IMG/VR virus record: IMGVR_UViG_3300028274_000006
Span: 1-64,000 of that record
Reading direction: 5' to 3' (one strand)
DNA from: a virus
DNA: 64,000 nt
Position numbers and translations under genes: made by a program. Below the pieces are notes generated by a model, which was not told where the DNA came from, ran no database searches, and was given only the letters and a program-made list of their open reading frames with translations. Of the stretch, positions 7,416-46,872 are shown piece by piece. Every line of letters begins with the position of its first letter. Positions within the stretch are counted from its first letter, which is position 1.

Positions 7416-7421
7416 TATTTT
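7392..7421 (+). promoter_or_regulatory. Promoter for portal operon
   Basis: TTGACA-18nt-TATTTT with TG extension; conserved at 42904-42933. Confidence 0.5.
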
Positions 7422-7457
7422 AATGTAAACGGCGGAGCCGTCACCCAAAGAGGTGAT

Positions 7458-9194
7458 ATGGCAAGAAAAAGCAAAGCAAGGTCCAACGAGACTTTAGCAA
7501 AAGAGATAGTTAACAAATACACTCATTCCCTAACCTGGAGACAACCTTTCAAAGAGAAATGGGATCGGTTTTATAAAATGTACCGATCTTACTTGGATGA
7601 CACCAATTACCCTTGGCAGTCTAATGTTTGGGTTCCTTATTCATTTTCAACTGTAGAGACCTTAGCACCTAGAATGGTGGCAAGGCGTCCTCAGATTGAT
7701 GTAATGCCTCGTGAGGCAGCGGATGAAGAGTATGCTGAAATTCAATCTAAGTTAATTGACTTTGAGTGGGAAGCTATGAACGCTGATGACATTATGGAAG
7801 ACGCAGTTAAGTCTCAGTTAATGTATGGCACAGCTATCATCAAGGTCTTTTGGAAAACAGAGACGGCTGAAGTCGTTAAGAAAGAACCAGTAGATGAAAC
7901 CTTCCCAGAACTAGGAATCGTAGAAGAAGAAGTTGAAGAGACAACTTTTGACGGACCAGAGATTGAGCTGATTGACCTTTATGACTTCTTTTGGGATCCA
8001 CGAGCTATTGATATAGAATCATCTCGTTGGGTTGCACACAGAATGTACAGAGGGCTTGATCACTTAAAAGAGTTACAAAAACAAGGTGTTTATAAGAATA
8101 TCTCTCTCTTAGAGAATGCAGCTATAGTATCTGATGATGACCAGAAGGCTCAACGCAGAGGAGTATTGGGCGTTGCTGTTCCAGATTCTCTAGAAGCCAA
8201 TGAAGAGGGTAAGCAGATGATAGAGTTAATTGAGTACTGGGAGAACGACAGAGTAGTCACAGTTGCCAATAGATCTATCGTTGTTAGAGATGAACCAAAC
8301 CCCTATAGACACGGCAAGAAGCCGTTTGTAAGGATTGTGGATCAATCAGTTCCTCACGAGTTCTTAGGCATTGGTGAACTAGAACCTATTGAAACACTAC
8401 AGTATGAGCTTAATGACCGTCGCAATCAGAGAATGGATAACATTACCCTAGCTCTTAACAGAATGTGGAAGGTTAAGAACGGAGCCAATGTAGATGAGGA
8501 TGAGTTAGTAAGTGATGCGGGTGGTGTTGTACATACAGACGACATTAATGGTGTAGAGCCTTTAATAATGCCTGATGTTACCGGATCAAGCTACAACGAA
8601 GAGACTTTAATCAAGGGCGATATTCAACAAACCACAGGAGTCTCAGACTTCACTCGTGGAGTTGGATCTGATGCACTAGCTAATGATACCGCTACTGGTA
8701 TCTCACTCATTCAAGAAGCAGGAAACGCTAGATTTAGACTAAAGATTAGAAACCTTGAGTACGGCATTGAAGAGATTGGTCGCATGATGGTCTCTCTAAA
8801 CGAACAGTTCCTCACTGAGGAAAAAGTAATTCGTATTATGGGAGACGAAGGATTTGAGTGGACAACAATTAAACCAGATGATCTGAGAGGAAATTTTGAT
8901 GTAATGGTACAAAGCGGTTCTACACTTCCAAGCAATGAAGCTGTAGAGCGTAAGCAAACTATGGAGATGTTCCAGATATTTGCAGGTGATCCCGAAGTTA
9001 ATCAACGTGAATTAAAGAAAAGGGTTTTAGAGACCTTTGGTATTAAGAATCTTGATAAACTTTTAACACCTGGCACTGGAGAAGCTCCGCTAGAACAACC
9101 ATTACCCAGCTTGGCGGAGGCTCCAGCCCCAGGACCAGGACAACTAGACCAGCAAGGGATTTTACAAAGCGCATTAGCTCCTGAAAGGGTTTAA
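7458..9194 (+). CDS. Portal protein (P22/podovirus-like)
   Basis: 578 aa after TerL; FFWDP, TGVSD, TATGI motifs. Confidence 0.9.
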   Translation: MARKSKARSNETLAKEIVNKYTHSLTWRQPFKEKWDRFYKMYRSYLDDTNYPWQSNVWVPYSFSTVETLAPRMVARRPQIDVMPREAADEEYAEIQSKLIDFEWEAMNADDIMEDAVKSQLMYGTAIIKVFWKTETAEVVKKEPVDETFPELGIVEEEVEETTFDGPEIELIDLYDFFWDPRAIDIESSRWVAHRMYRGLDHLKELQKQGVYKNISLLENAAIVSDDDQKAQRRGVLGVAVPDSLEANEEGKQMIELIEYWENDRVVTVANRSIVVRDEPNPYRHGKKPFVRIVDQSVPHEFLGIGELEPIETLQYELNDRRNQRMDNITLALNRMWKVKNGANVDEDELVSDAGGVVHTDDINGVEPLIMPDVTGSSYNEETLIKGDIQQTTGVSDFTRGVGSDALANDTATGISLIQEAGNARFRLKIRNLEYGIEEIGRMMVSLNEQFLTEEKVIRIMGDEGFEWTTIKPDDLRGNFDVMVQSGSTLPSNEAVERKQTMEMFQIFAGDPEVNQRELKKRVLETFGIKNLDKLLTPGTGEAPLEQPLPSLAEAPAPGPGQLDQQGILQSALAPERV

Positions 9195-9605
9195 ATGAGT
9201 GACTTTGCGTTTAGGCAGGCATTGCAAACAAATCAACCATCTGGAGAAAGTATTGAGTCTAAAGTAAGGACTACATCAGAAGGAGTGGACTTTGGAGTTA
9301 ATGAATCAAAAGAGGATGTTCCATTCTCTGACTATGAACAGGTGGCAGGACAACCACTCGTAGCAGAGTTCTTTGGACTAGGTCAGGAGTACAACCTAAA
9401 CCAAAGCAATACTAAATCAAAGATAGATGAGGTAACCGGCTTTGTTAACAAGTTTATAGAAGATGGTAGGTTAGAGAATAATGCAGAAACGGGTAAGATG
9501 ATTATAAGTAAGCTATTAGAAGGACTCGGAGAACCAAACGAAGAGCGTGGAGTAAGGCTTGATAGGCTTTATCACTTTGTAATGGCAAAAAGGAAACATG
9601 GCTAG
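9195..9605 (+). CDS. Hypothetical protein, paralog of 17675-18265 and 57387-57926
   Basis: GQPLVAEFFGL vs GQPFVADYFGI and NKPYPMDYFGL. Confidence 0.65.
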   Translation: MSDFAFRQALQTNQPSGESIESKVRTTSEGVDFGVNESKEDVPFSDYEQVAGQPLVAEFFGLGQEYNLNQSNTKSKIDEVTGFVNKFIEDGRLENNAETGKMIISKLLEGLGEPNEERGVRLDRLYHFVMAKRKHG

Positions 9606-10416
9606 CGATCACAAATCAGAATACACAGTTCAGAACTTAGCTAATTATTCAGCCGATAAAACAGTTGATCCACCCCTATGGACAAAGGGAGCAATGTATT
9701 GGGACGGTGCAGCTTGGGTAAGACAAGACAACGTTCTAGCTGCTGGAACTAATACCATTGGTAAGGTTTATGTAACTGATGGAACGGATGATGCGGATGT
9801 AGTGTCTAATTCAGGATCTACTGATAATTTAGATGGAACTAATGGACTGGTTACAGCAGCAGCTCTTTATGGAAGAGTTGGTGATACTTCTGTCAAGCCA
9901 ATTAAGCAAGACGGATCAACACACTCATTGTGTACTATTGACTATGAACATTGTGAGGTTCACTCGGGAAGCCATTATGAAACTAGAATAAACAAGGATA
10001 TGCCTAATGGTGGAACTTTTGGAATAGCTTTTACAACTCCAAATACAACAAAGTGGCCACATATGATTTTTGCAGTAGATGTTGAATTAGAGGCAGATAT
10101 TATTCTTTATGAGAATGTAACTTCATGGACTGGTGGAACTGCAATTACTCCACTTAATTCAAACAGAAATTCTGGCAACACATCAGGAATTACAGACATG
10201 GTGTTTGATCCAACCATGACCCTTGGTACTCCAATTACTTTAGGTCATTCCGTAATAGGCTCTGGTAAAAAAGTAGGTGGAATGGGTAGGTCTGCTGAAG
10301 AATTTGTATTAAAACAAAACACTACCTATTATTTTTTAGCATCAAATCAGGTTGCTGGTTCAGCCAATGAATGTAATTTCAATTTAACCTGGTACGAACA
10401 TACAGATAAAGATTAA
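9598..10416 (+). CDS. Probable virion decoration/structural protein (unit A only)
   Basis: T/G/S-rich 272-aa ORF within the head module. Confidence 0.5.
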   Translation: MASDHKSEYTVQNLANYSADKTVDPPLWTKGAMYWDGAAWVRQDNVLAAGTNTIGKVYVTDGTDDADVVSNSGSTDNLDGTNGLVTAAALYGRVGDTSVKPIKQDGSTHSLCTIDYEHCEVHSGSHYETRINKDMPNGGTFGIAFTTPNTTKWPHMIFAVDVELEADIILYENVTSWTGGTAITPLNSNRNSGNTSGITDMVFDPTMTLGTPITLGHSVIGSGKKVGGMGRSAEEFVLKQNTTYYFLASNQVAGSANECNFNLTWYEHTDKD

Positions 10417-10417
10417 T

Positions 10418-10690
10418 ATGAAAACAGCAAAAGAAATCCGTGATGCCAAGAGCCGGATAATACATCAAGGCAAATTAGTTGCCGAACTAGAATTGCATGA
10501 AGGATACAAGCTCCTAGAGAGTAAATTAGATATCCTTTGTGAGGATGCAAAAGAATCAGTCTTAGCATCTGAATCCTTTGAGGACTTCCGCTATAGACGG
10601 GGGTACTTAGATGGAATTAATGCTCTTATGCAGGAGGTTGACACGATCATCTCCAAAGGCAAGAAACAAGAGCAGCTAATTAAAAAGTAA
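10418..10690 (+). CDS. Small head-module protein
   Basis: Between portal and scaffold; homolog 44706-44978. Confidence 0.75.
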   Translation: MKTAKEIRDAKSRIIHQGKLVAELELHEGYKLLESKLDILCEDAKESVLASESFEDFRYRRGYLDGINALMQEVDTIISKGKKQEQLIKK

Positions 10691-10694
10691 ATAA

Positions 10695-10800
10695 GTTGTA
10701 GGTTACAAGCAGCAAGGCAGCTCTCTTTCTTAATTGACTGTTCCGTCTGTTTCCTTATATACGCACAAAGCTAGTTGCTTTGTTGCTCGTAGCTTACAAC
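10695..10800 (+). promoter_or_regulatory. Conserved 28-bp RNA helix upstream of scaffold gene
   Basis: 10695-10722 pairs with 10773-10800 (27/28 including G:U); conserved in unit B. Confidence 0.75.
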
Positions 10801-10815
10801 GGTTAAAGGAGACTT

Positions 10816-11601
10816 ATGTCTAAACCAAAAACCGACGCAGCCTCCAGTGAAGTTAAGGGTGGGAGTGCGGAATTATCCAACAACCCCGAATTACTAAAAC
10901 TGGAACAAGCAGTGAAAGCTGAGGCTGGTACGGCTAAATCACCTGAAACTTCTTCCGAAGAGAAGGAGGTTCTTGAAGCCCCAGAACACGGACAAGCATT
11001 TCAAGAGCTTTCAGAGAAGAAAGGCTTTAAAAGCGTTGATGAACTCGTAAGGGCTTATCAAACAACCGAAGGATATTCTACTCAACTGTCGCAAGAGATG
11101 AAGGAACTTCGTGAAGAGATAAAGCAGTCAAATGCTCCTCAGTCTGAAGATCCATACGGCGACTTACCGCAAGAGCAGAAACAAGCTCTAGACCTTTTGC
11201 GTAACGTCGTAAATGAAGAGATACAAAAAAGTATCTCACCAATTAAGGAAGATTTTGAAGTCAAGAAGGCATCCGAACAGCTTAACGCTATTCGCGATTC
11301 TTTTAAAGGCGTTTCTGACGCTGATCTTGATGCTGCAATCTCTCGTAAAGAGAGCATTCCGGGTTTATCCCTGGAAGAAGCAGTTAAAATCGTAACTTAT
11401 GAGGCTGCTCGTAGTGACGGAACTACTCAAAGGAAGAGAGCTGCAAAGACAAAACAGAAGAATAGAGCTTATGTTGAGTCTGGTAAAACGTCTAAAACAG
11501 GCGGAGATATTGATTACTCTAAACTCTCATTGGAAGAACTAGAGTCAATACTCCCCAAAGCTGGTCAATTTATTGATCACAAGGGCATTTTACAAAAGTA
11601 A
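10816..11601 (+). CDS. Capsid scaffolding protein
   Basis: Acidic, coiled-coil, immediately upstream of MCP. Confidence 0.8.
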   Translation: MSKPKTDAASSEVKGGSAELSNNPELLKLEQAVKAEAGTAKSPETSSEEKEVLEAPEHGQAFQELSEKKGFKSVDELVRAYQTTEGYSTQLSQEMKELREEIKQSNAPQSEDPYGDLPQEQKQALDLLRNVVNEEIQKSISPIKEDFEVKKASEQLNAIRDSFKGVSDADLDAAISRKESIPGLSLEEAVKIVTYEAARSDGTTQRKRAAKTKQKNRAYVESGKTSKTGGDIDYSKLSLEELESILPKAGQFIDHKGILQK

Positions 11602-11622
11602 TAATTATTAGGAGAAACAACA

Positions 11623-12543
11623 ATGGCATTAACAACCACTGGTACCCTCTCCTCAGTTGTCAAGTCTTACTATGACCGACGCTTTCTTATGAGAGCCGAA
11701 GCAGAGTTTGTCTACAAACAACTTGGACGCATTGGTGTCGTTCCAGCTAACGAAGGTAAAACTGTCGTTTGGAACCGATATACCAATCCAAGTGCTAAGA
11801 CTTCAGCACTGACAGAAGGTACAGACCCAACGCCAAGCGGATTGAGCGCATCATTAGTATCCGCAACCATTAGCCAATACGGCAACTTTGAACAAGTTAC
11901 CGATATTTTGAGCTTAACTGCAATTGATAATTCAATTTCATCCGCAGTTGAACTCTTGGCTTATGAAGCAGCCTTGAGCATTGACACTGTCATTCGTGAC
12001 ATTGCCGCCGCAACCACAAGCATTATCTACGCCTCTGGCGTTGCAAATAGAACTTCTATTTCAGCCACAGACGTTATGCAAGTTGCAGATGTTCGTAAGA
12101 CTGTTCGTGAGCTGAAAAGCAACAATGCTAAACCTCAGATGAAGAGCGGCACATTTATGGCCGTCATTCACCCTGATGTTGAGTATGACTTGCAAGGTGA
12201 CAGTAACTGGGTAAACGCATCCATCTATACCGAACAGGGTATTGGACAAGTTTACAACGGTGAAGTCGGTAAACTATATGGTGTTCGTTTCTTGAACACC
12301 ACTCAAGCTCCTATCTTAGTGAACTCCGGTTCCTCTGATGGCGTAGAGGTTTATCAATCACTTTTCTTCGGCGAAGAAGCATTTGGAGTTTCCGAACTTC
12401 AAAACCTAACCACTTATGTGGATAGTCCTTCTCCAAGAAGTGCTCTACGAATGTACAGTGACGTTGGTTGGAAGGCTGGCTTTACCGCCAAAATTCTCAA
12501 CGACAACTTCATGTATAGTGTTGAGTCTGCTGCTACACAATAA
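11623..12543 (+). CDS. Major capsid protein, N4-gp56 family
   Basis: LTEG..P, QYGN, IHPDVEYDL, GEVGKLYGVRF motifs. Confidence 0.9.
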   Translation: MALTTTGTLSSVVKSYYDRRFLMRAEAEFVYKQLGRIGVVPANEGKTVVWNRYTNPSAKTSALTEGTDPTPSGLSASLVSATISQYGNFEQVTDILSLTAIDNSISSAVELLAYEAALSIDTVIRDIAAATTSIIYASGVANRTSISATDVMQVADVRKTVRELKSNNAKPQMKSGTFMAVIHPDVEYDLQGDSNWVNASIYTEQGIGQVYNGEVGKLYGVRFLNTTQAPILVNSGSSDGVEVYQSLFFGEEAFGVSELQNLTTYVDSPSPRSALRMYSDVGWKAGFTAKILNDNFMYSVESAATQ

Positions 12544-12564: not shown

Positions 12565-12586
12565 AGGCTCCTTCGGGAGCCTTTTT
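12565..12586 (+). terminator. Intrinsic terminator after MCP
   Basis: AGGCTCC-TTCG-GGAGCCT-TTTT. Confidence 0.9.
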
Positions 12587-12589
12587 GGT

Positions 12590-12600
12590 TGTGCTATAAT
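12590..12600 (+). promoter_or_regulatory. Extended -10 promoter for groES-glycosyltransferase operon
   Basis: TGTGCTATAAT; same 11-mer at 34441 and 46877. Confidence 0.65.
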
Positions 12601-12621
12601 AATTTTGAAAGGAACAGACAC

Positions 12622-12900
12622 ATGATTATCCCAACAAATGAGAACGTGCTTGTTAAAGGTATTAAGCGTGAGAAGATTAAAACCGACTCAGGCATTTACC
12701 TGTCAGGAGGCACAAGCCAACAGGAGGAATCCTTGAGGTATGGAGAGATATTTCACCCAGGAGCTACCGAGTATTCTAAAGGAGATAAGATCTTCTACAG
12801 TGCTTATAGTGCTGTATGGGTAAACGATGAAGCTGGTACCGAGTATCAATTACTAAGCCAACTAGATATAATGGCAAAAGATGAACCCAAGAAGGCTTGA
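12622..12900 (+). CDS. groES: Co-chaperonin GroES
   Basis: IPTNENVLVK...KTDSGIYL...YQLLSQLDIMA. Confidence 0.85.
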   Translation: MIIPTNENVLVKGIKREKIKTDSGIYLSGGTSQQEESLRYGEIFHPGATEYSKGDKIFYSAYSAVWVNDEAGTEYQLLSQLDIMAKDEPKKA

Positions 12901-13177
12901 AACACTACTGAAGCAAGCTAATCCTCGTTTTAGAGTCAGACAGCGTGGACTCAATCACATTGGAGGGATATTCTTAGGATCGTCATTCATAGCCACCTTC
13001 ACAAAGGGACACATCCCACTAAATTCATATAGGTTAGTTTTCAAGAAGAAAGACACTCTAGGAGAGAAGATTATCAAACGTGGTCGTGGTGACTTACTAC
13101 AGATCTTAGTTCGTCGTGGTATTTTGAAGAGGCTAGACTCAATAAGAATTAAATGGGGGATTGATGCCAAAGATTAG
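12881..13177 (+). CDS. Basic hypothetical protein
   Basis: Homolog 47177-47473. Confidence 0.7.
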   Translation: MNPRRLETLLKQANPRFRVRQRGLNHIGGIFLGSSFIATFTKGHIPLNSYRLVFKKKDTLGEKIIKRGRGDLLQILVRRGILKRLDSIRIKWGIDAKD

Positions 13178-14573
13178 CTGTATTATATCAACCTATAACA
13201 GAGCAGATCATTTTTTACCAAAGGCAATAGACTCAGTTTTGTCTCAGACGTTTAAAGACTGGGAATTGGTCATTGTAGACGACTCAAGCACCGATGATAC
13301 CAAAAAAGTAGTAAACTCCTATCAAGACGACCGCATTAGATACCTCAAAACCGGCTCTAATTCTGGTAGTGATACCAAGCCTAAGAACTTGGGCACCAAA
13401 GAATCCAAAGGTGAATATATTTGCTACTTAGATGACGACGTGCAGTACCGTGAACATGCTTTTGAGATTCTAGTAGCGGAATTAGATGGAAACAAAGACT
13501 TGGACATTGTTTATGGAGATATGTGGATTAAACCTCGTGAAGAGGCTGGGATAGCATTTGACTTTGATGTACAGTTTCTCATGCTTAGAAACTACATAGA
13601 CACTTCAGCGGCCATGATGAGACGTGAGGCTATGTTTGAGATTGGTGGCTGGGATGAGAAGCTACCCAAGTTTGTAGATTGGAATGTATGGGTGAGGATG
13701 GCTAAGGCTGGATTAAAGTTTAAGAGGATTGAGGAGTTTACATTTGATTACTATTTACATGAAGACGCTAAGTCACAGAAAGTTAAAACAGATATGTATA
13801 TGCATCCTAAGCTGGGGATGCTGTTTGTACCCACGTTTAGTCCTAGTGGATGTGAAATACGGCTGCCTTATTTAAGCAACGACGACTCCGTTTTTAAGGT
13901 GGCCATATTTACTATTCACTACAACCGATTGGATTACTCTAAGGATACTTATAGGGAGATGATGCTGACAGCAGGCTATGAGTTTGACTGGTTCTGTAGA
14001 GACAATGGAGATGATGGAACACTAGATTGGTTGATTAAAGACACCAACGCAATCATTGACCGCAAGGATGTTGGGAAGAACTTAGGTATTACCAAGTCCA
14101 GCAACAACCTTATAGAGCTTATTAAGGACACTGGAGAGTATGACATTATCATAAAAGTGGATAACGACGTTGAGTTCCAGACGTATGGATGGTTAAAAGA
14201 TATTGTGGATATGTGGAAAAGAAACCACATGGCCTATATCTCACCTTATGTTGAAGGACTCTTTCACAACCCAGGCGGTGCTAGAAGGATAGGGTTTGGA
14301 ATGATTGGCGATGAGTTTATTGAAGTTACCAACCACATAGGAGGAATCTTTGCCGCTATAGACGCTAAGGCTTATGACAGCTTTAGATGGGAAGACCAGA
14401 TGTTACATGGCAATCAGGATGCAGAAGCTAGCATGGCTTTTAGGAAAATGGGATATATGCCCTGCTATTACCCCAAGCATAGAATCACTCACAGAGACGG
14501 CACTGAAGGACAACAACAGAAATACAAGAAATACTTTGAGAGAAGGAAAGAAGAAAAGACCACAAAGGCATGA
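13164..14573 (+). CDS. Two-domain family 2 glycosyltransferase
   Basis: ISCIISTYNR, VDDSSTD, YLDDD; second GT-A domain with KVDND. Confidence 0.9.
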   Translation: MPKISCIISTYNRADHFLPKAIDSVLSQTFKDWELVIVDDSSTDDTKKVVNSYQDDRIRYLKTGSNSGSDTKPKNLGTKESKGEYICYLDDDVQYREHAFEILVAELDGNKDLDIVYGDMWIKPREEAGIAFDFDVQFLMLRNYIDTSAAMMRREAMFEIGGWDEKLPKFVDWNVWVRMAKAGLKFKRIEEFTFDYYLHEDAKSQKVKTDMYMHPKLGMLFVPTFSPSGCEIRLPYLSNDDSVFKVAIFTIHYNRLDYSKDTYREMMLTAGYEFDWFCRDNGDDGTLDWLIKDTNAIIDRKDVGKNLGITKSSNNLIELIKDTGEYDIIIKVDNDVEFQTYGWLKDIVDMWKRNHMAYISPYVEGLFHNPGGARRIGFGMIGDEFIEVTNHIGGIFAAIDAKAYDSFRWEDQMLHGNQDAEASMAFRKMGYMPCYYPKHRITHRDGTEGQQQKYKKYFERRKEEKTTKA

Positions 14574-15427
14574 AACAATACCCTTATGTTTTTCCCTACT
14601 TTGGCTATGATGAGACATCAGCGGGCAATGTATTGATTCATAAGTTTTGTCACTTAATTAACGAGCTTGGTGGTAAAGCCTACATGGCTACCGACATTAC
14701 TCATCCAGATCTAAACACTCCTAAAATAAACAACATACAAGGCGTAGACGATAAGTGCATTGTTGTCTCTCCTGAGAACATCAATCATTTAACCTATGGC
14801 GGTGATTACATAGTTAAGTACATCCAGGCTGACTATGAGAAGATTGGTAGGGGCAAAGTTGATTTGGCTGGAGTAGATGATGTGTGGTGCTTTGCAAAGA
14901 CATTGTTTCCTAAGCATTGGGGTGGAGAAGTTAAGGTTTGTCATTTTAATACCGTTGATCTTAGTTTGTTTAATGAAGACGAGAAGTTTGAGAGAAAGGG
15001 CAACATTTGTTACGTCGGTAGAATGGGCGGTAAGGTTGATACATCAATTCTAAAAGACATGAAAGACCTAACTGCAATTACCCATGATTTCCCAAAAGAC
15101 AGAAAAGACCTTATTAAACTCATGCGTAGTAGTGAGTGGTGTTATATATTCTCCAATACTTCAATAGGCAGTGAAGCCATTATGTGTGGCTGCCCAGTGG
15201 TTATGCATGAGAATTTCTCAATGGCTTATGCCTTTGACGAGTATGGTGAAGACGGGAAGTTGTACGGTATGGCTATAGGTAACTCACTAGAGCAAATGGA
15301 GTGGGCTAAGAAAACAGTTAAGAAGTTTCAGGAGAAGGTTTACTGGCATGAAAGCCAAAAGGAGAAAAGAGTACTGGCCTTCATGGAAGATACTCAAAAA
15401 GGATTACATGAAAAACTACTCGGTTGA
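14570..15427 (+). CDS. Probable GT-B fold glycosyltransferase
   Basis: SAGNVLIHK, CYVGR, EAIMCGCPVV. Confidence 0.7.
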   Translation: MKQYPYVFPYFGYDETSAGNVLIHKFCHLINELGGKAYMATDITHPDLNTPKINNIQGVDDKCIVVSPENINHLTYGGDYIVKYIQADYEKIGRGKVDLAGVDDVWCFAKTLFPKHWGGEVKVCHFNTVDLSLFNEDEKFERKGNICYVGRMGGKVDTSILKDMKDLTAITHDFPKDRKDLIKLMRSSEWCYIFSNTSIGSEAIMCGCPVVMHENFSMAYAFDEYGEDGKLYGMAIGNSLEQMEWAKKTVKKFQEKVYWHESQKEKRVLAFMEDTQKGLHEKLLG

Positions 15428-16106
15428 AGTTCTGGTGATGGCTCACTATGCTCAGAGAAGCGAGAACATGCTGAAGCTAATTAATGCTTTGAAGAACCAG
15501 ACTTACAAACACATGTATATCACTGTCTTTGATGATGGAGAGATTGACCTAGATGTAGAAGGTGTGAACTATATTAGAACGACTGACATGTACCACATTA
15601 CGGCTAGGAACAGCTTGGCTGCCATGAGTGCTGCTGACTATGTTCTTACAATAGACGATGACATGATTCCAGGTACAAGATATGTAGAGAATCTTATTAA
15701 GTATGCTCGGAATCTACCTGGTTCTATCATTGGTGTTGAGGGAGGCAGATTAGTTCCTGGAGACACCCCATATACCTCTGGAATGACAGAGAGTACTCAT
15801 ATAATGGTAGAGGTTGATTATCTGATTAGAAGCATGCTACTCCCTCATAAGGTTATTGGGGCTTCTGTAGATATGCACTGCCGCAATAGAGAAAAGATTG
15901 GCTCTGAGTTTATAGATGATCTGCTGTTTAGCTTGGCAAACAAATATATGTTGAAGAACACCAACTTTATTGTTCCAGCAAAGGGCGACTTTGGATATGA
16001 TAATATATCTGATATGGGGGTGGGTCAATCTAAAAGCTCACAACACTACCTTACTAGAGATATGTTTTGTAAGTATATAATGGAGGAATATGCAAATATC
16101 AGTTAA
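15408..16106 (+). CDS. GT-A fold glycosyltransferase
   Basis: LKNQT, VFDDG, YVLTIDDD. Confidence 0.75.
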   Translation: MKNYSVEVLVMAHYAQRSENMLKLINALKNQTYKHMYITVFDDGEIDLDVEGVNYIRTTDMYHITARNSLAAMSAADYVLTIDDDMIPGTRYVENLIKYARNLPGSIIGVEGGRLVPGDTPYTSGMTESTHIMVEVDYLIRSMLLPHKVIGASVDMHCRNREKIGSEFIDDLLFSLANKYMLKNTNFIVPAKGDFGYDNISDMGVGQSKSSQHYLTRDMFCKYIMEEYANIS

Positions 16107-16680
16107 TTATGACGACTTCAGTCCATTAAATCACAGGTTTGATATCTTAGATCAAATCAGAGAGAGATACCCAGACTTCAAAGTTACTATGTTTACCGTT
16201 CCTTGGGAGATAAGACTATCTCCGAATACAAAGGGTACTCCTATCACAAATAGCGACTACAAGCCCTGGGTTCACAGGGTTATGGAGGCAGTAGACAATG
16301 GGTGGATGGAGATATCAATTCATGGATTAACACACGCACCTAGAGAGTTTGAAAAACTAACACATACTGAAGCTAGGAATCGTGTGCTTACAGGACAGAA
16401 GATGTTTGCAAATGTAGGTCTTGAGATCAATAATTTGTTTAAAGCACCCCAGTGGCTACTTAACGATGACGCTAAGAAGGCAATAGAGGACTTAGGATTT
16501 AAAGTAATGGAAGACGGTTACTATAACTGGAACTTAAAAGATGAAATGCCTCTTGAGAAGAATCTAATAGCACATGGTCATGTTCACGACACAATGGACA
16601 ATGGTTTAGAAGAATCGTTCTTCAGACTTACTAAGGCTCCTACCGATACAGAGTGGGTGCACTTGAGGGAGATGATATGA
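16090..16680 (+). CDS. Polysaccharide deacetylase-like protein (NodB/DUF2334)
   Basis: YDD, HGLTH, FKAPQW, HGH. Confidence 0.8.
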   Translation: MQISVNYDDFSPLNHRFDILDQIRERYPDFKVTMFTVPWEIRLSPNTKGTPITNSDYKPWVHRVMEAVDNGWMEISIHGLTHAPREFEKLTHTEARNRVLTGQKMFANVGLEINNLFKAPQWLLNDDAKKAIEDLGFKVMEDGYYNWNLKDEMPLEKNLIAHGHVHDTMDNGLEESFFRLTKAPTDTEWVHLREMI

Positions 16681-17690
16681 AAATCGTGGCTTTCAGTAAC
16701 GATACCGGCTCCGTACAGTGGAGGCTTAGGGGTCCAGCTAATTACATCAACTCTCTAACCGACCATGAGTTTGCTGTTGGTAGCCATAAGGACTGGGAAG
16801 AGGACACGATGGGTGCTGATGTAGTTGTAGCTGAGATGTGGCGTAATCCAAAAGGGATTGATGTTTGCCATGAGCAAGGAGCTAAAGTTGTTTACGATGC
16901 TGATGACATTATTATTGGCGTTGGTGGTAAAGACCGCAAAACTCTGATGGACTTAGACGAGAAGCAAACCAAGCAAACTATTGATACTATCGGCAAGTGT
17001 GATCTGGTTACAGTTACAACAGAGGTATTAGCAGAACACTATAGACAGTTTAATGACAACGTAATTGTCTTACCAAACTACATGGATTATCTGTGGTGGG
17101 GAAAGCCCTTAGAGTCTAGGTCTAGAGGATACTTGAGGTTGGGGTGGGCTGGTAGCTTATCTCACCGAGAAGACTTAATGATGATTGCTCCAGTGATAGA
17201 AAAGATCTGTAAGGACTATGATTTTGTTAAGTTTGTTTATTGTGGTGCAGGAGGCAAGAAGGGAATCTATGGGGAAGAGATCTTCAACAGCATTCCTTCT
17301 AACCAGAGGGAGTATGTTACCGGTGTCCCCTTAGAATACTGGCCAATCAAATCTAAGACACTAGGTTTAGATATAGCTATAGCCCCACTGTTAGATGATG
17401 AGTTTAATTCTTGCAAGAGTTCAATTAAATATTATGAGTATGCGGCCAACGGAGTGCCTGGAGTTTACAGCGACACCGTTGTATATCACGACGCTATTAA
17501 ACACGGAGAAACAGGCTATTTAGCAAAGACAAAGGGAGATTGGGAGAAGTACCTAATAGAGCTGATTATGGATGAGAAGAAGAGGCAAGAGATAGCAGTT
17601 AATGCTTATAAACACGTCTTTGAGAACTATAATTTAGATGACCACTATGAGAAGTGGGTGAAAGCCTATCAAAAATGTCTGAACCAGTAG
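16677..17690 (+). CDS. Family 4 (GT-B) glycosyltransferase
   Basis: YDADD, GWAGS.SH, DIAIAPL, KS.IKYYEY. Confidence 0.88.
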   Translation: MKIVAFSNDTGSVQWRLRGPANYINSLTDHEFAVGSHKDWEEDTMGADVVVAEMWRNPKGIDVCHEQGAKVVYDADDIIIGVGGKDRKTLMDLDEKQTKQTIDTIGKCDLVTVTTEVLAEHYRQFNDNVIVLPNYMDYLWWGKPLESRSRGYLRLGWAGSLSHREDLMMIAPVIEKICKDYDFVKFVYCGAGGKKGIYGEEIFNSIPSNQREYVTGVPLEYWPIKSKTLGLDIAIAPLLDDEFNSCKSSIKYYEYAANGVPGVYSDTVVYHDAIKHGETGYLAKTKGDWEKYLIELIMDEKKRQEIAVNAYKHVFENYNLDDHYEKWVKAYQKCLNQ

Positions 17691-18265
17691 CAGTTCCCAT
17701 AATACCAAGCAATGAACCGGTACCAAAAAGAGTTAGGGTTGATAGCCCATCCTCATCAGTGGTTGAGAGTCATAGCCTAGAATCTTATAGCAGTACCTAC
17801 AATAAGCCCTATCCTATGGACTACTTTGGTTTAAGCGACACAGATGGTTCATCTAGTAATGTTGAATCTATCACCAAGCATTTAAGCGAGATGACTGATG
17901 GATCTATAGAGATGGTTAAGGGTGTTCTTGATGAAATAGGCAGTAAGTTAAATCTACAAGAAAATGACTCTGGAATCTTTAAGCTAAACAAGATCCTAGC
18001 GTTCTTAGGTATCAAGAGTATTCAAAACAAAGAATCAGAGATGAGTGAACAGGCCCTAAGGGATATCCAAAAGGATGTTGAGATTGCAAAGGAAGAACTA
18101 AGCATCGCTGAGAAAGCCGCCAAGATTGAACTTGAGGCAGAGAAGAGAAAGATCAAAGCAGAAAGCAATAGGAATGAACAATTAAAGAAACAAATAGCTA
18201 AAGGTCAAGACAAATTGAAAAGAATGAGGGCTAAAGTACTTGCAGATATTAAGGGAATAGTATAA
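17675..18265 (+). CDS. Hypothetical coiled-coil protein
   Basis: Homolog 57387-57926. Confidence 0.7.
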   Translation: MSEPVAVPIIPSNEPVPKRVRVDSPSSSVVESHSLESYSSTYNKPYPMDYFGLSDTDGSSSNVESITKHLSEMTDGSIEMVKGVLDEIGSKLNLQENDSGIFKLNKILAFLGIKSIQNKESEMSEQALRDIQKDVEIAKEELSIAEKAAKIELEAEKRKIKAESNRNEQLKKQIAKGQDKLKRMRAKVLADIKGIV

Positions 18266-18298: not shown

Positions 18299-19441
18299 AT
18301 GGCATATTCACCAGCTTCCAGCACATTTCCCACAGCTAAAACTACATTCGTTGATCCTACAGCTACAAGTAGTCAAAATACGTTTGACCACGCAGGACTT
18401 GAATCAGCACAGAACGATGGTATTGAAAAACTTGAAACAGCGGTGGGTATTACCGCAAGTGCTGACACAGCATCTTTAAACTATAAACTTACCAACGCCT
18501 CACAAAGCAATCCAGGACACAAGCATACCGTAGCTGACGGAGCTACCGATGTTACCTCTAGTGCCGCGGAACTCAACCAATTAGACGGAGTAACTGTTGG
18601 AGGAACTTCAAGCGGAGACATTGTTGATTTAGATACAGCACAAACCCTAGCCACTAAAACCCTAACAAGTCCTGTATTAAACGGGACTCTTTCTGGTACG
18701 GCCTTCTTAGATCAAGATGCAATGGATGATGACAGCGCTATTGCAGTAGCTAGCCAACAATCAATTAAGGCTTATGTTGACGCCAGTGCTGGTGGATCTA
18801 CAACTGGTTGGACTTCAGATAGTGATACCTGGGTATATGCTTCGGCACAGACTTTTACAATTGCAGGTAAAGACGTAACCACAACTTTTACTAAAGGGAC
18901 ACGGCTCATTTGGACACAAACAACTGTTAAATATGGAGTGGTGGTAGCAAGCTCATTCTCAACTGACACAACGGTTACAATAATGACCAACACCGATTAC
19001 ACGATTGCAAATGCTGCTATTACAGTAAATTCATACTCATATCAACAGAATCCACAAGGTTATCCAACTTGGTTTGATATTGCCGCTCCAACATGGACTG
19101 GACTAGACGATGGGGCTGGTGGACAGCCAAGTGTGTCAGTGTGTAGAGGAATGGTTAATGGGAATACTTTTGATGCTCATATTCATCTCGCCCCGACTAA
19201 AGCTGGCACAAGTAATACTTTCTATCTAGAAACAAGTGATACTGTTTTTCCAGTATGGGTTAATAGGGCTGATAGATCTGGTCTGGGCTTTGTTTATTCT
19301 CAAACATCTGGAGATAGTAATAATTTAATGACTGCATTTTCAATCGGAACAAAGATATATACCGGATATGCAATCCAGTCCAGTATTACTGACAATACAG
19401 CATGGACTCATATGACTTATAACTTGAAGTGGGAAATCTAA
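18299..19441 (+). CDS. Virion fibre/appendage protein
   Basis: T/S/A-rich, QTLATKTLTSP repeat; N-terminus shared with 57960, different C-terminus. Confidence 0.75.
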   Translation: MAYSPASSTFPTAKTTFVDPTATSSQNTFDHAGLESAQNDGIEKLETAVGITASADTASLNYKLTNASQSNPGHKHTVADGATDVTSSAAELNQLDGVTVGGTSSGDIVDLDTAQTLATKTLTSPVLNGTLSGTAFLDQDAMDDDSAIAVASQQSIKAYVDASAGGSTTGWTSDSDTWVYASAQTFTIAGKDVTTTFTKGTRLIWTQTTVKYGVVVASSFSTDTTVTIMTNTDYTIANAAITVNSYSYQQNPQGYPTWFDIAAPTWTGLDDGAGGQPSVSVCRGMVNGNTFDAHIHLAPTKAGTSNTFYLETSDTVFPVWVNRADRSGLGFVYSQTSGDSNNLMTAFSIGTKIYTGYAIQSSITDNTAWTHMTYNLKWEI

Positions 19442-19621
19442 ATGACAACATGGACCGACTCTACAAGCGTATCTACTAGCTGGACAGAACAAGATTTTGA
19501 GGACAGATCAATAATTGCCTTCAATCAAGAAGGGATTACTTTTAACTTTAACATCACTTTTAATGGAATTACCAGTTATCAAGATGCAAGCTCAGTAACA
19601 ACAGATTGGACTGACGCATAG
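19442..19621 (+). CDS. Small virion protein (59 aa)
   Basis: MTTWTD...DWTDA; homolog 59742-59945. Confidence 0.7.
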   Translation: MTTWTDSTSVSTSWTEQDFEDRSIIAFNQEGITFNFNITFNGITSYQDASSVTTDWTDA

Positions 19622-19628
19622 GAGAATT

Positions 19629-20339
19629 ATGACATTAGACGAACTACTAACAGATTTAAATAACAGAATCGGCTCTACACCAGAGGTGAGTAATGCCAAT
19701 ATGACCACCTGGATTAATGAAGGCTTGAGAGCTTTTTGTAGAGAGCATGACTTTACTTGGTTGGAGAAGAAGGCGACCGCATCTTCAGTAGCTAGTCAGG
19801 CTGAATATGACTTACCAGATGATTATAGGAGAGCTGTTGAATTAAGGGTGGACGGAACAACATCATCACCAAATGTTTATTCATGGGTTCCTCACGAGCA
19901 GCGTGTCTTATATGACACAAGCCAAAGGATATTCTCAGAGTTTGGGGGGTCTTTTGCACTTAACCCAATTCCCTCAGCGGTTGGGACAAACAACATTGAG
20001 CTTTGGTATCTTCGTAGGCCAACCAATATGACTGTTGGGACACAGAGCCCCTCAGATGCAGCAATAGCATCAATGCCAGCAGAATATCACGAGGCTTTAG
20101 TTATCTATGCGTTTGCCATCTACAACTCTTATGACGAAGAGCATGATGAGAAGCGTGAATTAATGGGCAATCCTAGAAATCCCGTACCTGGAACTTATTA
20201 CTATTATGTAAACTTAGCAATTAAAGATGATACACGCCAAAAAAGAGGTGGAAGACGTAAGTTTATGAGCTTCCAGGAGTTTGTTGGACACTCACACCCA
20301 AACCAAACACCGAGATCTAATACAGTACTAGGAAATTGA
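19629..20339 (+). CDS. Head-tail adaptor (tail tubular A-like)
   Basis: WINEG, YDLPDDY, MPAEYHEALV.YA. Confidence 0.75.
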   Translation: MTLDELLTDLNNRIGSTPEVSNANMTTWINEGLRAFCREHDFTWLEKKATASSVASQAEYDLPDDYRRAVELRVDGTTSSPNVYSWVPHEQRVLYDTSQRIFSEFGGSFALNPIPSAVGTNNIELWYLRRPTNMTVGTQSPSDAAIASMPAEYHEALVIYAFAIYNSYDEEHDEKRELMGNPRNPVPGTYYYYVNLAIKDDTRQKRGGRRKFMSFQEFVGHSHPNQTPRSNTVLGN

Positions 20340-20340
20340 T

Positions 20341-21891
20341 ATGGCTAGAAACTTTGTCTACTATCGTAAAAGGACTTACTCAGGGGGTCAAAATGATGCT
20401 GCTGATTTAGATCAGTTGCGTGATGATGAGTCTAGAGTGGTCCAGAATGCTTATATTGGAAAAGAAGGTATCGTACAAAAGAGAAGTGGAACCACCATCT
20501 TAGGAGATGACACCGGTGATACTAAAATCACGGGATTAGATTCGTGGAAGGAGTCTGATGGGACTAAGTGGCTATTTTCAACAACTGGTACGGATCTTAG
20601 ATACCTGAACTCTACTACTTGGGATACCCTAGATAATGGATTCACAACAGGATTAGATACAGAATTCGTCGTTGCTGATAATAAACTCTACATCCTTAAT
20701 GGAACTGACAACATGCACAGCTATGATGGTGCATCTGTAGCTCTTAATTCAGGTCTTGTTGATATGGGGAATGCTGCTGTTCCAAAAGCTAAGTATGGAG
20801 TCTGGTGGAAGAACTACATGTTTATTTGTGGAGCTAGCGTTTTTGATGGTACTAGCTATCCCACAAGAGTATGGTTTTCTAATATTGGTGATGCAGACAC
20901 TTGGACAACCGCAACTGATTACTTTGATGTAGGATTAGACGATGGCCAAGCAATTACTGGCATAGGCATTCTAGATAAGTTTTTAGTTATCTTTAAAGAG
21001 AACTCAATTTACATCCTTACAGGAGATGGTCCCAGTGCTTGGAAGCTATCTGCCACCGTAAACAACTTGGTTACTATAGCCAACGGTGTTGGTTGTGCTT
21101 CTCACCGATCAATCGTTCAGGTAAGCAATGATCTTTGGTTCATGGATCAGAATGGAAACATTAGATCTATAAGAAAGAATGAAGAGGGCGGAAATCCTCT
21201 ATATGGAATCATCAGTGCTAATATTCAGGGAACTATTGATGGACTTAACAAGGGGTCTTTATCTAAGGTTGCAGGCAAGCTATTTAACAACAGGGTTTAC
21301 TATGCAGCGCCCAATGGGTCATCTAGCTTTAACAACATATTAATGGTTGCTGATCTTAGGATTAGGATAGATAAACCACTTAACCCTCATCCCTGGGTAA
21401 CTTATACCGGTTGGAGTCCAGGAGTTTTGGCGGTCTATTTGCCTAGCAATCAACCACAGCTCTACTATGGTGAGGGTGATGCTGATTCATTGATATATCA
21501 AGCTGAAACCGGCACAAATGATAACAGCGCGGCCATAGACTTTGACATTAAAGACAGAATGATAGACCTAAGAGATCCGGACATGAGAAAGACGGCCAGG
21601 TTTATTATCGTTACGGCAGAATCAGGGGGAGACTACAACGTCGCAGTATCTTCAAGTCTTGATGGAACCACGTTCAGCGAACATGGAAATATTAATCTTT
21701 ACTCTGGAGACGTATGGAACTCTGGAACATGGGATACATCAACCTGGGGTTATGGAGTTGAAATTAAAAAGAAGTTTGCCTTACAAAGAGCAAGCGAACA
21801 GATTATGATACGTTTTAGAAATAACGCAGCAGATCAGGCAGTAACAATGAAGCCATACACTTTGGCATTCAAACCAAAGAAAATTAAATAA
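20341..21891 (+). CDS. Tail nozzle / stabilisation protein (P22 gp10 / tail tubular B-like)
   Basis: RVWFS, LVIFKENSIY, GVGC motifs; position after adaptor. Confidence 0.8.
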   Translation: MARNFVYYRKRTYSGGQNDAADLDQLRDDESRVVQNAYIGKEGIVQKRSGTTILGDDTGDTKITGLDSWKESDGTKWLFSTTGTDLRYLNSTTWDTLDNGFTTGLDTEFVVADNKLYILNGTDNMHSYDGASVALNSGLVDMGNAAVPKAKYGVWWKNYMFICGASVFDGTSYPTRVWFSNIGDADTWTTATDYFDVGLDDGQAITGIGILDKFLVIFKENSIYILTGDGPSAWKLSATVNNLVTIANGVGCASHRSIVQVSNDLWFMDQNGNIRSIRKNEEGGNPLYGIISANIQGTIDGLNKGSLSKVAGKLFNNRVYYAAPNGSSSFNNILMVADLRIRIDKPLNPHPWVTYTGWSPGVLAVYLPSNQPQLYYGEGDADSLIYQAETGTNDNSAAIDFDIKDRMIDLRDPDMRKTARFIIVTAESGGDYNVAVSSSLDGTTFSEHGNINLYSGDVWNSGTWDTSTWGYGVEIKKKFALQRASEQIMIRFRNNAADQAVTMKPYTLAFKPKKIK

Positions 21892-21900
21892 AGGAGATTT

Positions 21901-22602
21901 ATGGGAGTAATAACTAAACCAAACACTTATGTAGCAGGTAGTACAATCCTAGCATCAGAAGTAAACGCTAACGAAGATACTCTATACACGTTAGTTAATG
22001 GCAATATAGAGAACGCTAATATTAAAGCAGCAGCAGCCATTGCTTATTCAAAGTTGAACCTAACCGGGGCTATTCTGGCCGCAGACTTAGCAACTGACGC
22101 AGTTGAGACAGCTAAGATTAAAGACGCCAACGTAACAACGGCAAAGATTGCAGATGATGCAGTAGATGGGGACAAACTAGCAGATGACACAGTAGATGAT
22201 TCAAAACTTAATCTGACTCAAGATCAGACACGCAAGGGAAACAACGCGGCTATTACAGCTACGGCTTCTTTAGGGACTACAATCATAACTCATGCTTCCC
22301 TACCAGCAGGCAAATACATTTTCTATGGTAACTGTGCCTGTTATGTAGATACAGGAGCGGACGTTACTGGTGCTATCATTTGGGAATTAAATGATGGGTC
22401 AAGTCAAATTCATGCAGACATGCCTGGATTTAAATTTGACAGCGCAAGTGGTGCGCAAACTGAATGGTCTGGAGCTGGATTTATAACTGTTAACACACTT
22501 AGTGGTACTACCACTGTAAACTTAGCGGCTTACAAAAAGGGTGGAATCACTAATGGTAATTATTCAGGAGCCACAATGTTTGGCTACATCAGAATAGCTT
22601 AA
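21901..22602 (+). CDS. Tail fibre/spike protein
   Basis: ASEVNAN N-terminus; AVETAKIKDANVTTAKIADDAV repeats. Confidence 0.75.
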   Translation: MGVITKPNTYVAGSTILASEVNANEDTLYTLVNGNIENANIKAAAAIAYSKLNLTGAILAADLATDAVETAKIKDANVTTAKIADDAVDGDKLADDTVDDSKLNLTQDQTRKGNNAAITATASLGTTIITHASLPAGKYIFYGNCACYVDTGADVTGAIIWELNDGSSQIHADMPGFKFDSASGAQTEWSGAGFITVNTLSGTTTVNLAAYKKGGITNGNYSGATMFGYIRIA

Positions 22603-22612
22603 AGGAGAATAT

Positions 22613-23362
22613 ATGGCATCAGTTGACGAACAAATTAGAGCACTAGATAGTCAGGCCGCTGATGAGATCAATAAATATATTGATGAACTCAAGGGCGAGG
22701 CTCAAGGTGACTTTGATTTTATTACTAAGTTTTTAAAGAGGCAATTTGAGACTGCTTTAGGAACTGACAATCAAGCCAGAGCTGAGTTCTTTTCTAAGGT
22801 TGCCAACCAGTTGGAAAAACGCATTGGGAGAATTCCCTTTGACTTTGATCTTAAAACTGGCAGAGAGAAGGTAGATATTGCCAACTTCTTGAGAAGACAA
22901 GACATAGAAGACACCGACCTACGGGCCAGAGAAGCGGAGTTTGAGCAACAACAAGAATTTGCAACCGGCATAGAGACTGAACAACGCAAAGAAGAGTTTG
23001 GGGCTAGAGGACTTTTAGACTCAGGGCTTCAGGTTAAGCGCAGACAACAGCAAGAAGAGGCAAGGAAACTAAGCACTGATCCTATTCGTAGGGCGTTTGA
23101 TCTTGAGAGAACTCGTAGAACAGAGCAATCAAAAGAAGCTCAACTACAAAGCGGGCGCAGACTAGAAGATATCCAAACAGGAGCTAGAAGAGGTGCAGAA
23201 GATGTACAGTTTGGATTTGATAAGGGTAGCGAGGCAGCTCAGTTAGACTTTGAAAAGAGACTGTCTGCTATTGAAAGAACTGGAGCTTCTGAGAGAAGAA
23301 ACGTACTATCTCTACTAACACAAGAAGAATTATTAAAGAAACAACTAGGACAATTCGGATAA
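22613..23362 (+). CDS. Probable internal virion (ejection) protein
   Basis: Helical E/Q/R-rich; position after tail genes. Confidence 0.55.
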   Translation: MASVDEQIRALDSQAADEINKYIDELKGEAQGDFDFITKFLKRQFETALGTDNQARAEFFSKVANQLEKRIGRIPFDFDLKTGREKVDIANFLRRQDIEDTDLRAREAEFEQQQEFATGIETEQRKEEFGARGLLDSGLQVKRRQQQEEARKLSTDPIRRAFDLERTRRTEQSKEAQLQSGRRLEDIQTGARRGAEDVQFGFDKGSEAAQLDFEKRLSAIERTGASERRNVLSLLTQEELLKKQLGQFG

Positions 23363-27392: not shown

Positions 27393-28409
<1,017 letters not shown>

Positions 28410-28411
28410 AT

Positions 28412-29367: not shown

Positions 29368-29372
29368 CAATT

Positions 29373-37467: not shown

Positions 37468-37475
37468 GAGAAATT

Positions 37476-46850: not shown

Positions 46851-46872
46851 AGGCTCCTTCGGGAGCCTTTTT
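46851..46872 (+). terminator. Intrinsic terminator after MCP
   Basis: Identical to 12565-12586. Confidence 0.9.

Follow-up and report, generated by a model that had tools for sequence, protein, structure and literature searches.

A glycan-building cassette with a fixed frame and an exchangeable centre behind the major capsid gene of uncultivated aquatic podophages

The DNA analysed here (the window) is the first 64 kb of the 74,772-base IMG/VR viral record IMGVR_UViG_3300028274_000006, and its positions 12590-17690 hold a cassette of glycosylation genes lying between the major capsid protein (MCP) gene and the fibre genes of a phage. The record consists of two complete, related genomes of about 37 kb lying head to tail and joined at the same genomic position, referred to as unit A (1-37673) and unit B (37674-74772). 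This reading is based on the collinearity of the two halves over their whole length (blastn, most blocks about 72-82% identical), on their coinciding ends and on the size of related contigs, which is only about 30-45 kb. Bases 1-155 are repeated at 37674-37828 with 98% identity, and the last 327 bases of the record (74446-74772) correspond to A 37275-37598 at 89%; the relatives of these phages include a circular genome of 40,140 bp. An initial annotation of this DNA had taken the two units for loci of one genome. A single 75 kb genome with duplicated modules was rejected on the grounds given above, and the join most likely reflects an assembler crossing from one co-occurring strain into another. 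The cassette and its immediate neighbours, the anatomy of which we consider close to certain, are listed below, with open reading frames (ORFs) given as coordinates and strand and protein lengths in amino acids (aa).

Unit A:
11623-12543, plus strand: MCP gene (phrog_1357 major head protein, E 4e-60; Pfam Phage_capsid_4)
12565-12582, plus strand: intrinsic-terminator-like hairpin and T-run, 3' of the MCP stop codon
12590-12600, plus strand: extended -10 promoter-like element TGTGCTATAAT, recognised from its letters only
12622-12900, plus strand: GroES/Cpn10 co-chaperonin (Pfam Cpn10 39.3 bits, E 6.6e-10, cut-off 21.1; phrog_3188)
12881-13177, plus strand: basic 98-aa protein (isoelectric point 11.7), overlapping both adjoining genes
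13161-14573, plus strand: left-frame glycosyltransferase (GT) of 470 aa with two GT-A domains (Pfam GT2, E 2.8e-29, residues 6-113)
14570-15427, plus strand: centre gene 1, compact GT-B-fold GT of 285 aa (ESM Atlas model)
15408-16106, plus strand: centre gene 2, single-domain GT2 (Glycos_transf_2 35 bits, cut-off 23.3, weak)
16090-16680, plus strand: DUF2334/CE4-type polysaccharide deacetylase (Pfam DUF2334 44.5 bits, cut-off 26; Polysacc_deac_1 26 bits, cut-off 23.1; both passed)
16653-17690, plus strand: GT4-type (GT-B) GT (Glyco_trans_1_4 36.3 bits, cut-off 27; phrog_7162, E 4e-43)
17654-18265, plus strand: 203-aa protein, Ser-rich at the N-terminus and both basic and coiled-coil-like at the C-terminus, overlapping the GT4 gene
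18299-19441, plus strand: fibre-like protein, Ser/Thr-rich (27%), with a conserved N-terminus and a variable C-terminus

Unit B:
46851-48866, plus strand: left frame, with terminator, TGTGCTATAAT at 46877, groES (46918-47190), basic protein (47177-47473) and two-domain GT (47460-48866)
48867-55219, plus strand: variable centre without blastn similarity to A (Pfam, NCBIfam), encoding first a 75-aa ORF, a nitroreductase-like flavoprotein, a 228-aa protein and a weak GT-B-like protein, then two 4,6-dehydratase/epimerase-like short-chain dehydrogenases/reductases (SDR), a GT2, an RfbH/DegT-family pyridoxal-phosphate (PLP) enzyme and a second GT2
55126-57402, plus strand: right frame, with deacetylase (55126-55821), HNH endonuclease ORF (55857-56393) and GT4 (56383-57402)

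Gene content and order of both units agreed with the initial annotation. Sequence comparison by blastn placed the breakpoints between A and B at gene borders: similarity in the left frame ends at A 14573 / B 48866 and returns with the right frame at A 16082 / B 55220, and both flanking frames are about 77% identical in DNA. The MCP gene is the constant upstream neighbour of the cassette, the A and B copies (the latter at 45911-46831) being 86-87% identical. From groES through the 203-aa ORF, the start of each gene overlaps the stop of the preceding one, which suggests one translationally coupled operon.

The individual genes of the frame were then compared with known families and folds. The 470-aa enzyme has a sole Pfam GT2 match, in its N-terminal half, and its AlphaFold2 model (54-sequence alignment, pLDDT 93.9) consists of two GT-A domains, each with a DXD-type motif (D91-D92-D93 and D334-N335-D336) invariant in the 54 sequences; its earlier description as a double GT2 was therefore correct. 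The best structural matches over the whole length were the heparosan synthase PmHS2 (Z 24-25, 387-408 residues of model positions 1-464 aligned, root-mean-square deviation (rmsd) about 20 Å) and the chondroitin polymerase K4CP (Z 22, 394-398 residues, rmsd 7.4-7.7 Å). Taken alone, domain 2 matched human B4GALNT1 (Z 18.5, 190 residues aligned, rmsd 3.1 Å), and the best matches of domain 1 include the wall-teichoic-acid glycosyltransferases TarP, TarS and RmlT (Z 24-25). At an E-value limit of 1e-5 the family comprises 622 homologues; identity is 48% or higher throughout the top 120, many of which lie on contigs of 20-45 kb. No full-length member was found by tblastn in a collection of 50,697 phage records, and the searches made returned no studied member.

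In the deacetylase, H78, H82, E86, H162 and H164 (HxxxH and HGH motifs) are invariant in 25 sequences and the consensus N-terminal motif is DDF; profile searches against the PDB gave only a weak match (4m1b, E 0.05). The GT4 gene overlaps the deacetylase gene by 28 nt. Its product has R162, K255, K259 and E262 invariant in 24 sequences, and its PDB profile matches (TreT, PglA, TarM) cover the C-terminal part only. Catalytic residues, whose absence had been named beforehand as an argument against a glycosylation cassette, are thus represented by invariant motifs in all three frame enzymes.

The small genes at the left end are less uniform in what they reveal. GroES passes the family threshold in both units, with 41.8 bits in B against the cut-off of 21.1. 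Its ORF in A is open from 12589, and a TTG at this position had been given as the start; the gene itself was confirmed, and comparison with B indicates that translation most likely begins at ATG 12622. The basic 98-aa protein has 23 distinct members in relatives, plus three distant ones aligning over conserved K-G and R columns. Its AlphaFold2 model (pLDDT 92.1) has an alpha-beta5-alpha-alpha arrangement without a convincing match among PDB folds (best Z 5.3); a HicA/dsRBD-like similarity reached Z 4-5 only and was not counted as evidence.

Both units carry their own promoter-like element behind the MCP terminator, as the initial annotation had proposed. The unit A terminator is a perfect 7-bp GC-rich hairpin with a T-run, and TGTGCTATAAT starts eight bases 3' of it; the identical hairpin is found in unit B at 46851-46868, followed by the same element. 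In most relatives examined, a GC-rich hairpin, usually with a T-run, lies 3' of the MCP gene, and a -10-like element is often next to it. Exact copies of the 11-mer TGTGCTATAAT occur at 12590, 46877 and 34441, and the 9-mer TGCTATAAT at two intergenic sites in the 34-37 kb region, including 36875. Because TGCTATAAT recurs at these two other intergenic sites, expression of the cassette need not follow that of the late genes; the promoter appears to be of the same sigma-70 type as other host-RNA-polymerase promoters of the phage and need not be late-specific. On the minus strand, TGATATAAT (13182-13190 and 47478-47486) is conserved at the junction of the basic-protein and two-domain GT genes in both units, where it may act as an antisense promoter or may only reflect the conservation of the coding sequence.

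The centres of A and B differ entirely, with two genes in A and ten ORFs in B. The middle of A had been described as two GTs, which holds with a qualification for each gene. Gene 2 is supported by a weak GT2 match and most likely starts at ATG 15408, which has AAGGA, resembling a ribosome-binding site, upstream (the ORF is open from 15348). Gene 1 is a GT by fold only: its Atlas model matched GT4-family GT-B clusters with TM-scores of 0.73-0.80, and searches of Pfam and of PDB sequences gave no match. Among the relatives described below, homologues of gene 1 and gene 2 were found in L041 only and L014 only, respectively. In B, the PLP enzyme is closest to RfbH (NCBIfam 391.6 bits against a cut-off of 423), and the SDR enzymes show weak matches to the families of dTDP-glucose 4,6-dehydratase and epimerase (83.8 and 114.2 bits against a cut-off of 365.1). 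To judge from these matches, the gene set of the B centre is the kind expected to produce deoxy, dideoxy or amino hexoses. The distinct middle of B had been recognised previously; the HNH endonuclease ORF between its deacetylase and GT4 genes, which A lacks, had been overlooked.

To place the cassette in a wider context, relatives were collected from IMG/VR by MCP and then by an alignment of the two-domain GT, and their genes were mapped by iterative profile search (L-numbers denote these related viral loci). This identified 24 distinct complete cassettes in other viral contigs, and all three frame enzymes (two-domain GT, deacetylase and GT4) occur in every one. Two of the 24 are cut off upstream; in the remaining 22, the MCP gene is followed by one to three small ORFs and then by the two-domain GT; the small ORFs are groES and the basic protein, or a fused or reduced form. 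Departures from the frame are few: L003 is without groES and the basic protein, the gene order of the right frame is reversed in L066 and L067, L059 and L076 have a long deacetylase of 446 aa and no centre, and L060 and L074 also have no centre.

The centres of the 24 cassettes contain 0-10 genes from 37 families. Their 90 non-redundant proteins include 22 S-adenosylmethionine-dependent methyltransferases, 14 GT2s and 11 nucleoside diphosphate (NDP)-sugar epimerases/dehydratases; other families are UDP-galactopyranose mutase, an RGP-family protein, a short Ugd (L066), an RfbH-like enzyme and a sulfotransferase (L017, L051). The two-domain GTs of A and B are 83% identical, yet the two units have no centre family in common; pairs with 60-75% identical two-domain GTs have a mean of 22% of centre families in common. 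In pace of turnover the centre is roughly on a par with the fibre gene next to it: between A and B the 203-aa ORF is 35% identical and the fibre can be aligned only in part. The comparison across related phages that the initial annotation had called for thus showed a frame that persists and a centre that varies. The recurrence of this layout in 24 distinct complete cassettes places it far beyond chance, and the cassette is a core feature of a deep clade of uncultivated aquatic podophages.

The portal and adaptor proteins of this phage are of the SU10 podophage type, and its closest cultured relatives by MCP are the Pagevirus phages of Bacillus megaterium, at only 31-33% identity. The cassette is absent from Bacillus phage Pascal and the relatives with MCP identity below 40%. 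The DNA was present in many seawater metagenome runs, with no RNA run among the listed runs carrying it. No tRNA was found in the record, and a GTDB scan for the host returned only four phage contigs binned in metagenome-assembled genomes, with unrelated taxonomic labels, so that no host was assigned. GenBank MW202801.1, the circular 40,140-bp genome of a freshwater-spring podophage, contains an MCP-adjacent variant at 19272-24303 in which the deacetylase-GT4 end is kept and the left side is different; its genes encode an Fe-S oxidoreductase, a GT, a PhyH-type dioxygenase, a methyltransferase, a nodB-like deacetylase and a GT. This variant takes the deacetylase-GT4 end out to MCP relatives of only 29% identity.

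Several further observations concern mobility in and around the cassette. Logan contigs from four seawater runs were fragments only, at 3-6x depth. One of them (run X17, record 3, covering 13654-14573) resembles A (98%) as far as 14258 and B beyond 14400, and enters the B centre (48867 onward) exactly at 14573; at this depth, natural recombination at the left frame and a chimeric assembly are indistinguishable as its origin. ORFs resembling HNH/zinc-finger endonucleases are inserted at varied points in the MCP-to-GT4 block (55857-56393 in B, L040 8878-9312, L041 8899-9447, L075 4693-5232 and L058 7175-7654), and a TnpB/OrfB_IS605 gene lies in the cassette centre of L055 (8736-10028). L070 has a full-length Cpn60/GroEL-family gene (10237-11778, 513 aa, E 1e-53) between deacetylase and GT4; in this clade GroES is routine and GroEL occasional. 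The MCP gene itself is interrupted by ORFs of 145-185 aa in L018 (about 6848-8216), L021 (5701-7329), L049 and L057, which suggests introns, inteins or homing-endonuclease insertions.

The best explanation for these data is that the cassette is a phage-encoded, wholly cytoplasmic operon for building a glycan. Across the 24 complete cassettes, a search for membrane proteins found no window beyond borderline hydrophobicity (maximum Kyte-Doolittle 1.83). No Wzx, Wzy or ABC exporter, flippase, polymerase or polyprenyl-phosphate primer was present among the 25 commonest Pfam families of the 90 centre proteins, a list that covers families with more than three members, and rare exceptions carrying an exporter or primer are possible. 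As for the acceptor, the reading that fits best, to which we would give an even chance, is that the glycan is placed on virion proteins. All ORFs of at least 200 aa in unit A were scanned (smaller ones in part), and none encodes a lysogeny gene, an integrase, a DNA polymerase, a thymidylate-synthase-like hydroxymethylase, a TET enzyme or another nucleotide-modifying enzyme. For a phage without lysogeny genes, virion proteins would be the most economical cytoplasmic acceptor, and a virion acceptor would also explain the diversifying pressure on glycan composition.

In the pathway that we propose, the GT4 and the deacetylase would start the glycan, the former by adding an N-acetyl-hexosamine and the latter by exposing its amine. 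The synthesis of mycothiol, bacillithiol and glycosylphosphatidylinositol anchors is initiated by adding N-acetylglucosamine and then deacetylating it, and the overlap of the deacetylase and GT4 genes recalls this logic by analogy, with a different deacetylase family here. The two-domain enzyme, whose architecture resembles that of the chondroitin and heparosan polymerases, would then behave as they do and add two sugars or a repeating disaccharide. The centre genes would make and attach strain-specific sugars, which might be methylated, deoxy or amino, furanose and possibly uronic or sulfated, and the conserved flanks would serve as recombination arms for swapping the centre. The acceptor would be a virion protein produced in that cytoplasm, either the capsid or the downstream Ser/Thr-rich fibre, giving the particle a variable glycan coat. 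The fibre-like protein (18299-19441, no Pfam match) is a candidate acceptor or receptor-binding protein; the hypervariable 203-aa protein before it has homologues 3' of the cassette in many, not all, relatives. A role of GroES in folding the capsid protein seems likelier than one in glycosylation.

The sugar-nucleotide supply of unit A also bears on the composition of the glycan. The following gene lies outside the cassette:

3493-4356, plus strand: short NDP-sugar (UDP-glucose) dehydrogenase-like gene, unit A (Pfam N-terminal and central domains only)

It had been described as a ugd gene away from the cassette; the location was right, and the gene is a short form without the C-terminal UDP-binding domain rather than a full ugd. 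Its NCBIfam match covers positions 70-297 of 413, with 180.5 bits against a cut-off of 189.8. A similar short dehydrogenase lies inside the L066 cassette (11004-11789), and unit B keeps a 57-aa fragment (41198-41371). Since the short version recurs in two distant phages, once within a cassette, it may be functional and not a leftover, and we softened the view that the unit A gene is a decayed pseudogene. The short Ugd of A and of the L066 cassette, together with the sulfotransferase of L017 and L051, makes a uronic-acid-containing, glycosaminoglycan-like chain compatible with the data in some members.

Several points weigh against a virion acceptor. No result identified an acceptor, and the C-termini of the MCP, compared as a candidate glycosylation site, do not tell cassette-bearing from cassette-free relatives, nor do MCP lengths. 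The downstream fibre is not a universal partner, since L058 and L068 have the adaptor gene immediately after the cassette. The best single-domain matches of domain 1 act on envelope polymers, and the recurrence of the promoter 9-mer means that timing may not be late. The stretch 3' of the MCP terminator might just be a place where insertions are tolerated, given that selfish elements and GroEL are also found in this block. Finally, the function is predicted from genes alone.

The main rival, a serious one that we regard as less likely, is that the cassette acts at the cytoplasmic face to modify a glycopolymer of the host envelope (teichoic acid, O-antigen or capsule intermediates), leaving delivery to host exporters. 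The effect would be to block superinfection or to keep progeny off debris, and the centre would vary because host glycans vary. TarP, TarS and RmlT, which domain 1 resembles, are peripheral cytoplasmic enzymes without membrane helices, and weak PHROG matches to GtrB-like O-antigen conversion proteins point in the same direction. A sigma-70-type promoter would permit expression apart from the late genes, possibly early, and hypervariability beside a hypervariable fibre gene is consistent with a phage that follows the surface types of its hosts; for marine myophages, hypervariable regions rich in GTs have been read in this way (PMC7029224). Against this, the frame is the conserved core of a whole clade and not an accessory moron, the scanned ORFs of unit A include no lysogeny genes, and no membrane, flippase, polymerase or priming component was seen. 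Moreover, the operon lies within the structural block and overlaps the downstream Ser-rich ORF (17654-18265).

We consider it improbable that the product goes to another cytoplasmic acceptor, such as host proteins, or is a free oligo- or polysaccharide that would act as a decoy or matrix once lysis releases it, with a link to the capsid that is positional only. This would agree with a two-domain GT architecture found in polymerases that extend free or lipid-primed chains, with the predicted solubility of all enzymes, and with the unrelated genes in the block (GroES, GroEL, HNH, TnpB), which suggest a permissive site. An intracellular product hardly explains a turnover as fast as that of a receptor-binding gene, and we know of no precedent.

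Glycosylation of phage DNA as a protection against restriction, which the initial annotation had offered as an alternative, is highly improbable: this role is often given to phage GTs, DNA can bear di- and tri-saccharides (bioRxiv 10.1101/2023.12.21.572611) and the Atlas offers, as no more than a lead, a weakly similar cluster for 14570-15427 that contains the T4 glucosyltransferase (score 0.85), but no enzyme for a glycosylatable base was found, the scanned unit A ORFs including no hydroxymethylase, TET/JBP dioxygenase, C5-methyltransferase, DNA polymerase or nucleotide-metabolism gene and only a ParB-N6/N4 methylase that is absent from B, while the deacetylase, sulfotransferase, mutases and many O-methyltransferase-type genes indicate a complex glycan.

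The reading of the cassette as a virion-glycosylation operon can be set beside a second group of sugar-related genes in unit A:

27402-28409, plus strand: collagen-like fibre with G-Y-T/G-D-T repeats (Pfam Collagen)
29373-31076, plus strand: GT2-TPR-GT2 enzyme (Pfam GT2 plus TPR), separated from the collagen-like gene by two small ORFs

This module (27402-31076) is found in unit A only and is absent from B. The N-terminus of the GT2-TPR-GT2 enzyme matches GmaR (22ao_A, E 1.4e-11), the flagellin O-GlcNAc transferase of Listeria (PMC9638930). An alignment-based scan of IMG/VR retrieved loci encoding this enzyme family (L082-L161), whereas a single-sequence scan found none. A collagen-like gene, defined as a (G-X-Y) run of at least 8 repeats within 5 kb, was present in 63/80 of these viral loci and in 2/78 other phage loci used as controls (Fisher p 1.7e-25), and the third repeat position in these neighbours is nearly always Thr. 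By analogy, the pair looks like a widespread phage enzyme-substrate module resembling BclA/SgtA. The linkage of the GT2-TPR family to collagen-like genes lends some support to structural-protein glycosylation in this phage; it does not point to an acceptor for the main cassette, which lacks a collagen-like gene next to it.

Two other features distinguish unit A from B. A 118-aa ORF (2908-3264) matches the Thoeris inhibitor Tad3 (Pfam PF25185, E 1.8e-35) and occurs in A only. Two additional genes at 9195-10416, 3' of the portal gene, are likewise absent from B; they encode a 136-aa relative of the N-terminus of the 203-aa protein found after the cassette, and a 272-aa protein with 19% Ser plus Thr, and look like a second small-protein-plus-fibre module.

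In the literature searched, virion glycosylation has been shown experimentally for a few mycobacteriophages only, and the GT-rich hypervariable regions of marine phages are usually ascribed, without evidence, to modification of host O-antigen or protection of DNA. The cassette described here is a compact test case, with five to fifteen soluble enzymes, a defined frame and natural 'alleles' that can be co-expressed with capsid and fibre genes. If the glycan is on the particle, protein sequences would greatly understate the antigenic and chemical variety of marine phage surfaces, models of adsorption, decay and host range would be affected, and phage particles could be glyco-engineered with the swappable centre as a natural toolkit. 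A further proposal, which we offer tentatively and hold to be rather doubtful, is that virions of this widespread clade are coated with a glycan made by a polymerase-like transferase and reshuffled by cassette exchange, amounting to phage 'serotypes' outside the actinobacteriophages and in an antibody-free environment. Such a coat may be partly de-N-acetylated, methylated, or furnished with uronic or sulfate groups. The selecting force would then be, for example, host defences that sense glycans, non-host adsorption sinks, grazers or particle adhesion.

In glycosylated mycobacteriophages, methyltransferases are said to accompany the GTs. Like the phage studied here, mycobacteriophages Che8, Corndog and Myrna encode their own GTs, according to PMC12619734 and PMC10955285, and the summary of Freeman et al. 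2023 in PMC12619734 places glycans on the C-termini of capsid and tail-tube subunits; in our case cytoplasmic modification of virion proteins is a proposal. The present system differs in belonging to an aquatic podophage lineage, in using other enzymes and in its three-enzyme frame with a swappable centre 3' of the MCP gene, and it is known from genes alone. No mycobacteriophage homologue of the two-domain GT or the GT4 was among the matches listed by tblastn against the 50,697 phage records, the GT families being broad.

The conserved-flank/variable-core layout that had suggested a likeness to O-antigen loci is indeed present. As in O-antigen and capsule clusters, conserved flanks enclose a variable centre of NDP-sugar and GT genes, including an RfbH-like enzyme of the dideoxyhexose type, and the centre seems to be exchanged by recombination at the flanks. 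Unlike those clusters, the phage cassette shows no initiating polyprenyl-phosphate transferase, flippase, polymerase, ligase, ABC transporter or membrane protein, and its flanks are themselves transferases and a deacetylase. With K4CP and PmHS2 the 470-aa enzyme shares two GT-A domains in one soluble chain, each with a DXD-type motif. Sequence identity is only 14-19%, the two domains are oriented differently relative to each other (rmsd 7-21 Å), the phage enzyme at 470 aa falls short of the roughly 600-690 aa of these proteins, and its polymerase activity is a prediction. The giant viruses of the Megavirinae have clade-specific fibril glycosylation clusters, in which sugar-nucleotide pathways and GTs vary between relatives and decorate the surface fibrils; these clusters serve viruses of eukaryotic hosts, are far larger and have an unrelated gene order without the fixed frame of two-domain GT, CE4 deacetylase and GT4.

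The GT2-TPR-GT2 enzyme of unit A resembles GmaR, FlmG and SgtA in combining GT and TPR domains. FlmG binds its flagellin substrate through the TPRs (PMC7591256), and the enzyme adjoins a Thr-rich collagen-like gene just as SgtA adjoins BclA3 in the arrangement known from Clostridioides difficile spores (PMC7157674). It differs from them in that a phage carries it and that another GT-like domain follows at the C-terminus; both its substrate and its sugar are putative. Collectively, phage virion glycosylation, hypervariable GT islands of marine phages and clade-specific glycosylation clusters of giant viruses were already known; what is new is a three-enzyme frame with a polymerase-like two-domain GT 3' of the capsid gene, its core status in a large uncultivated podophage clade and the documented turnover of the cassette.

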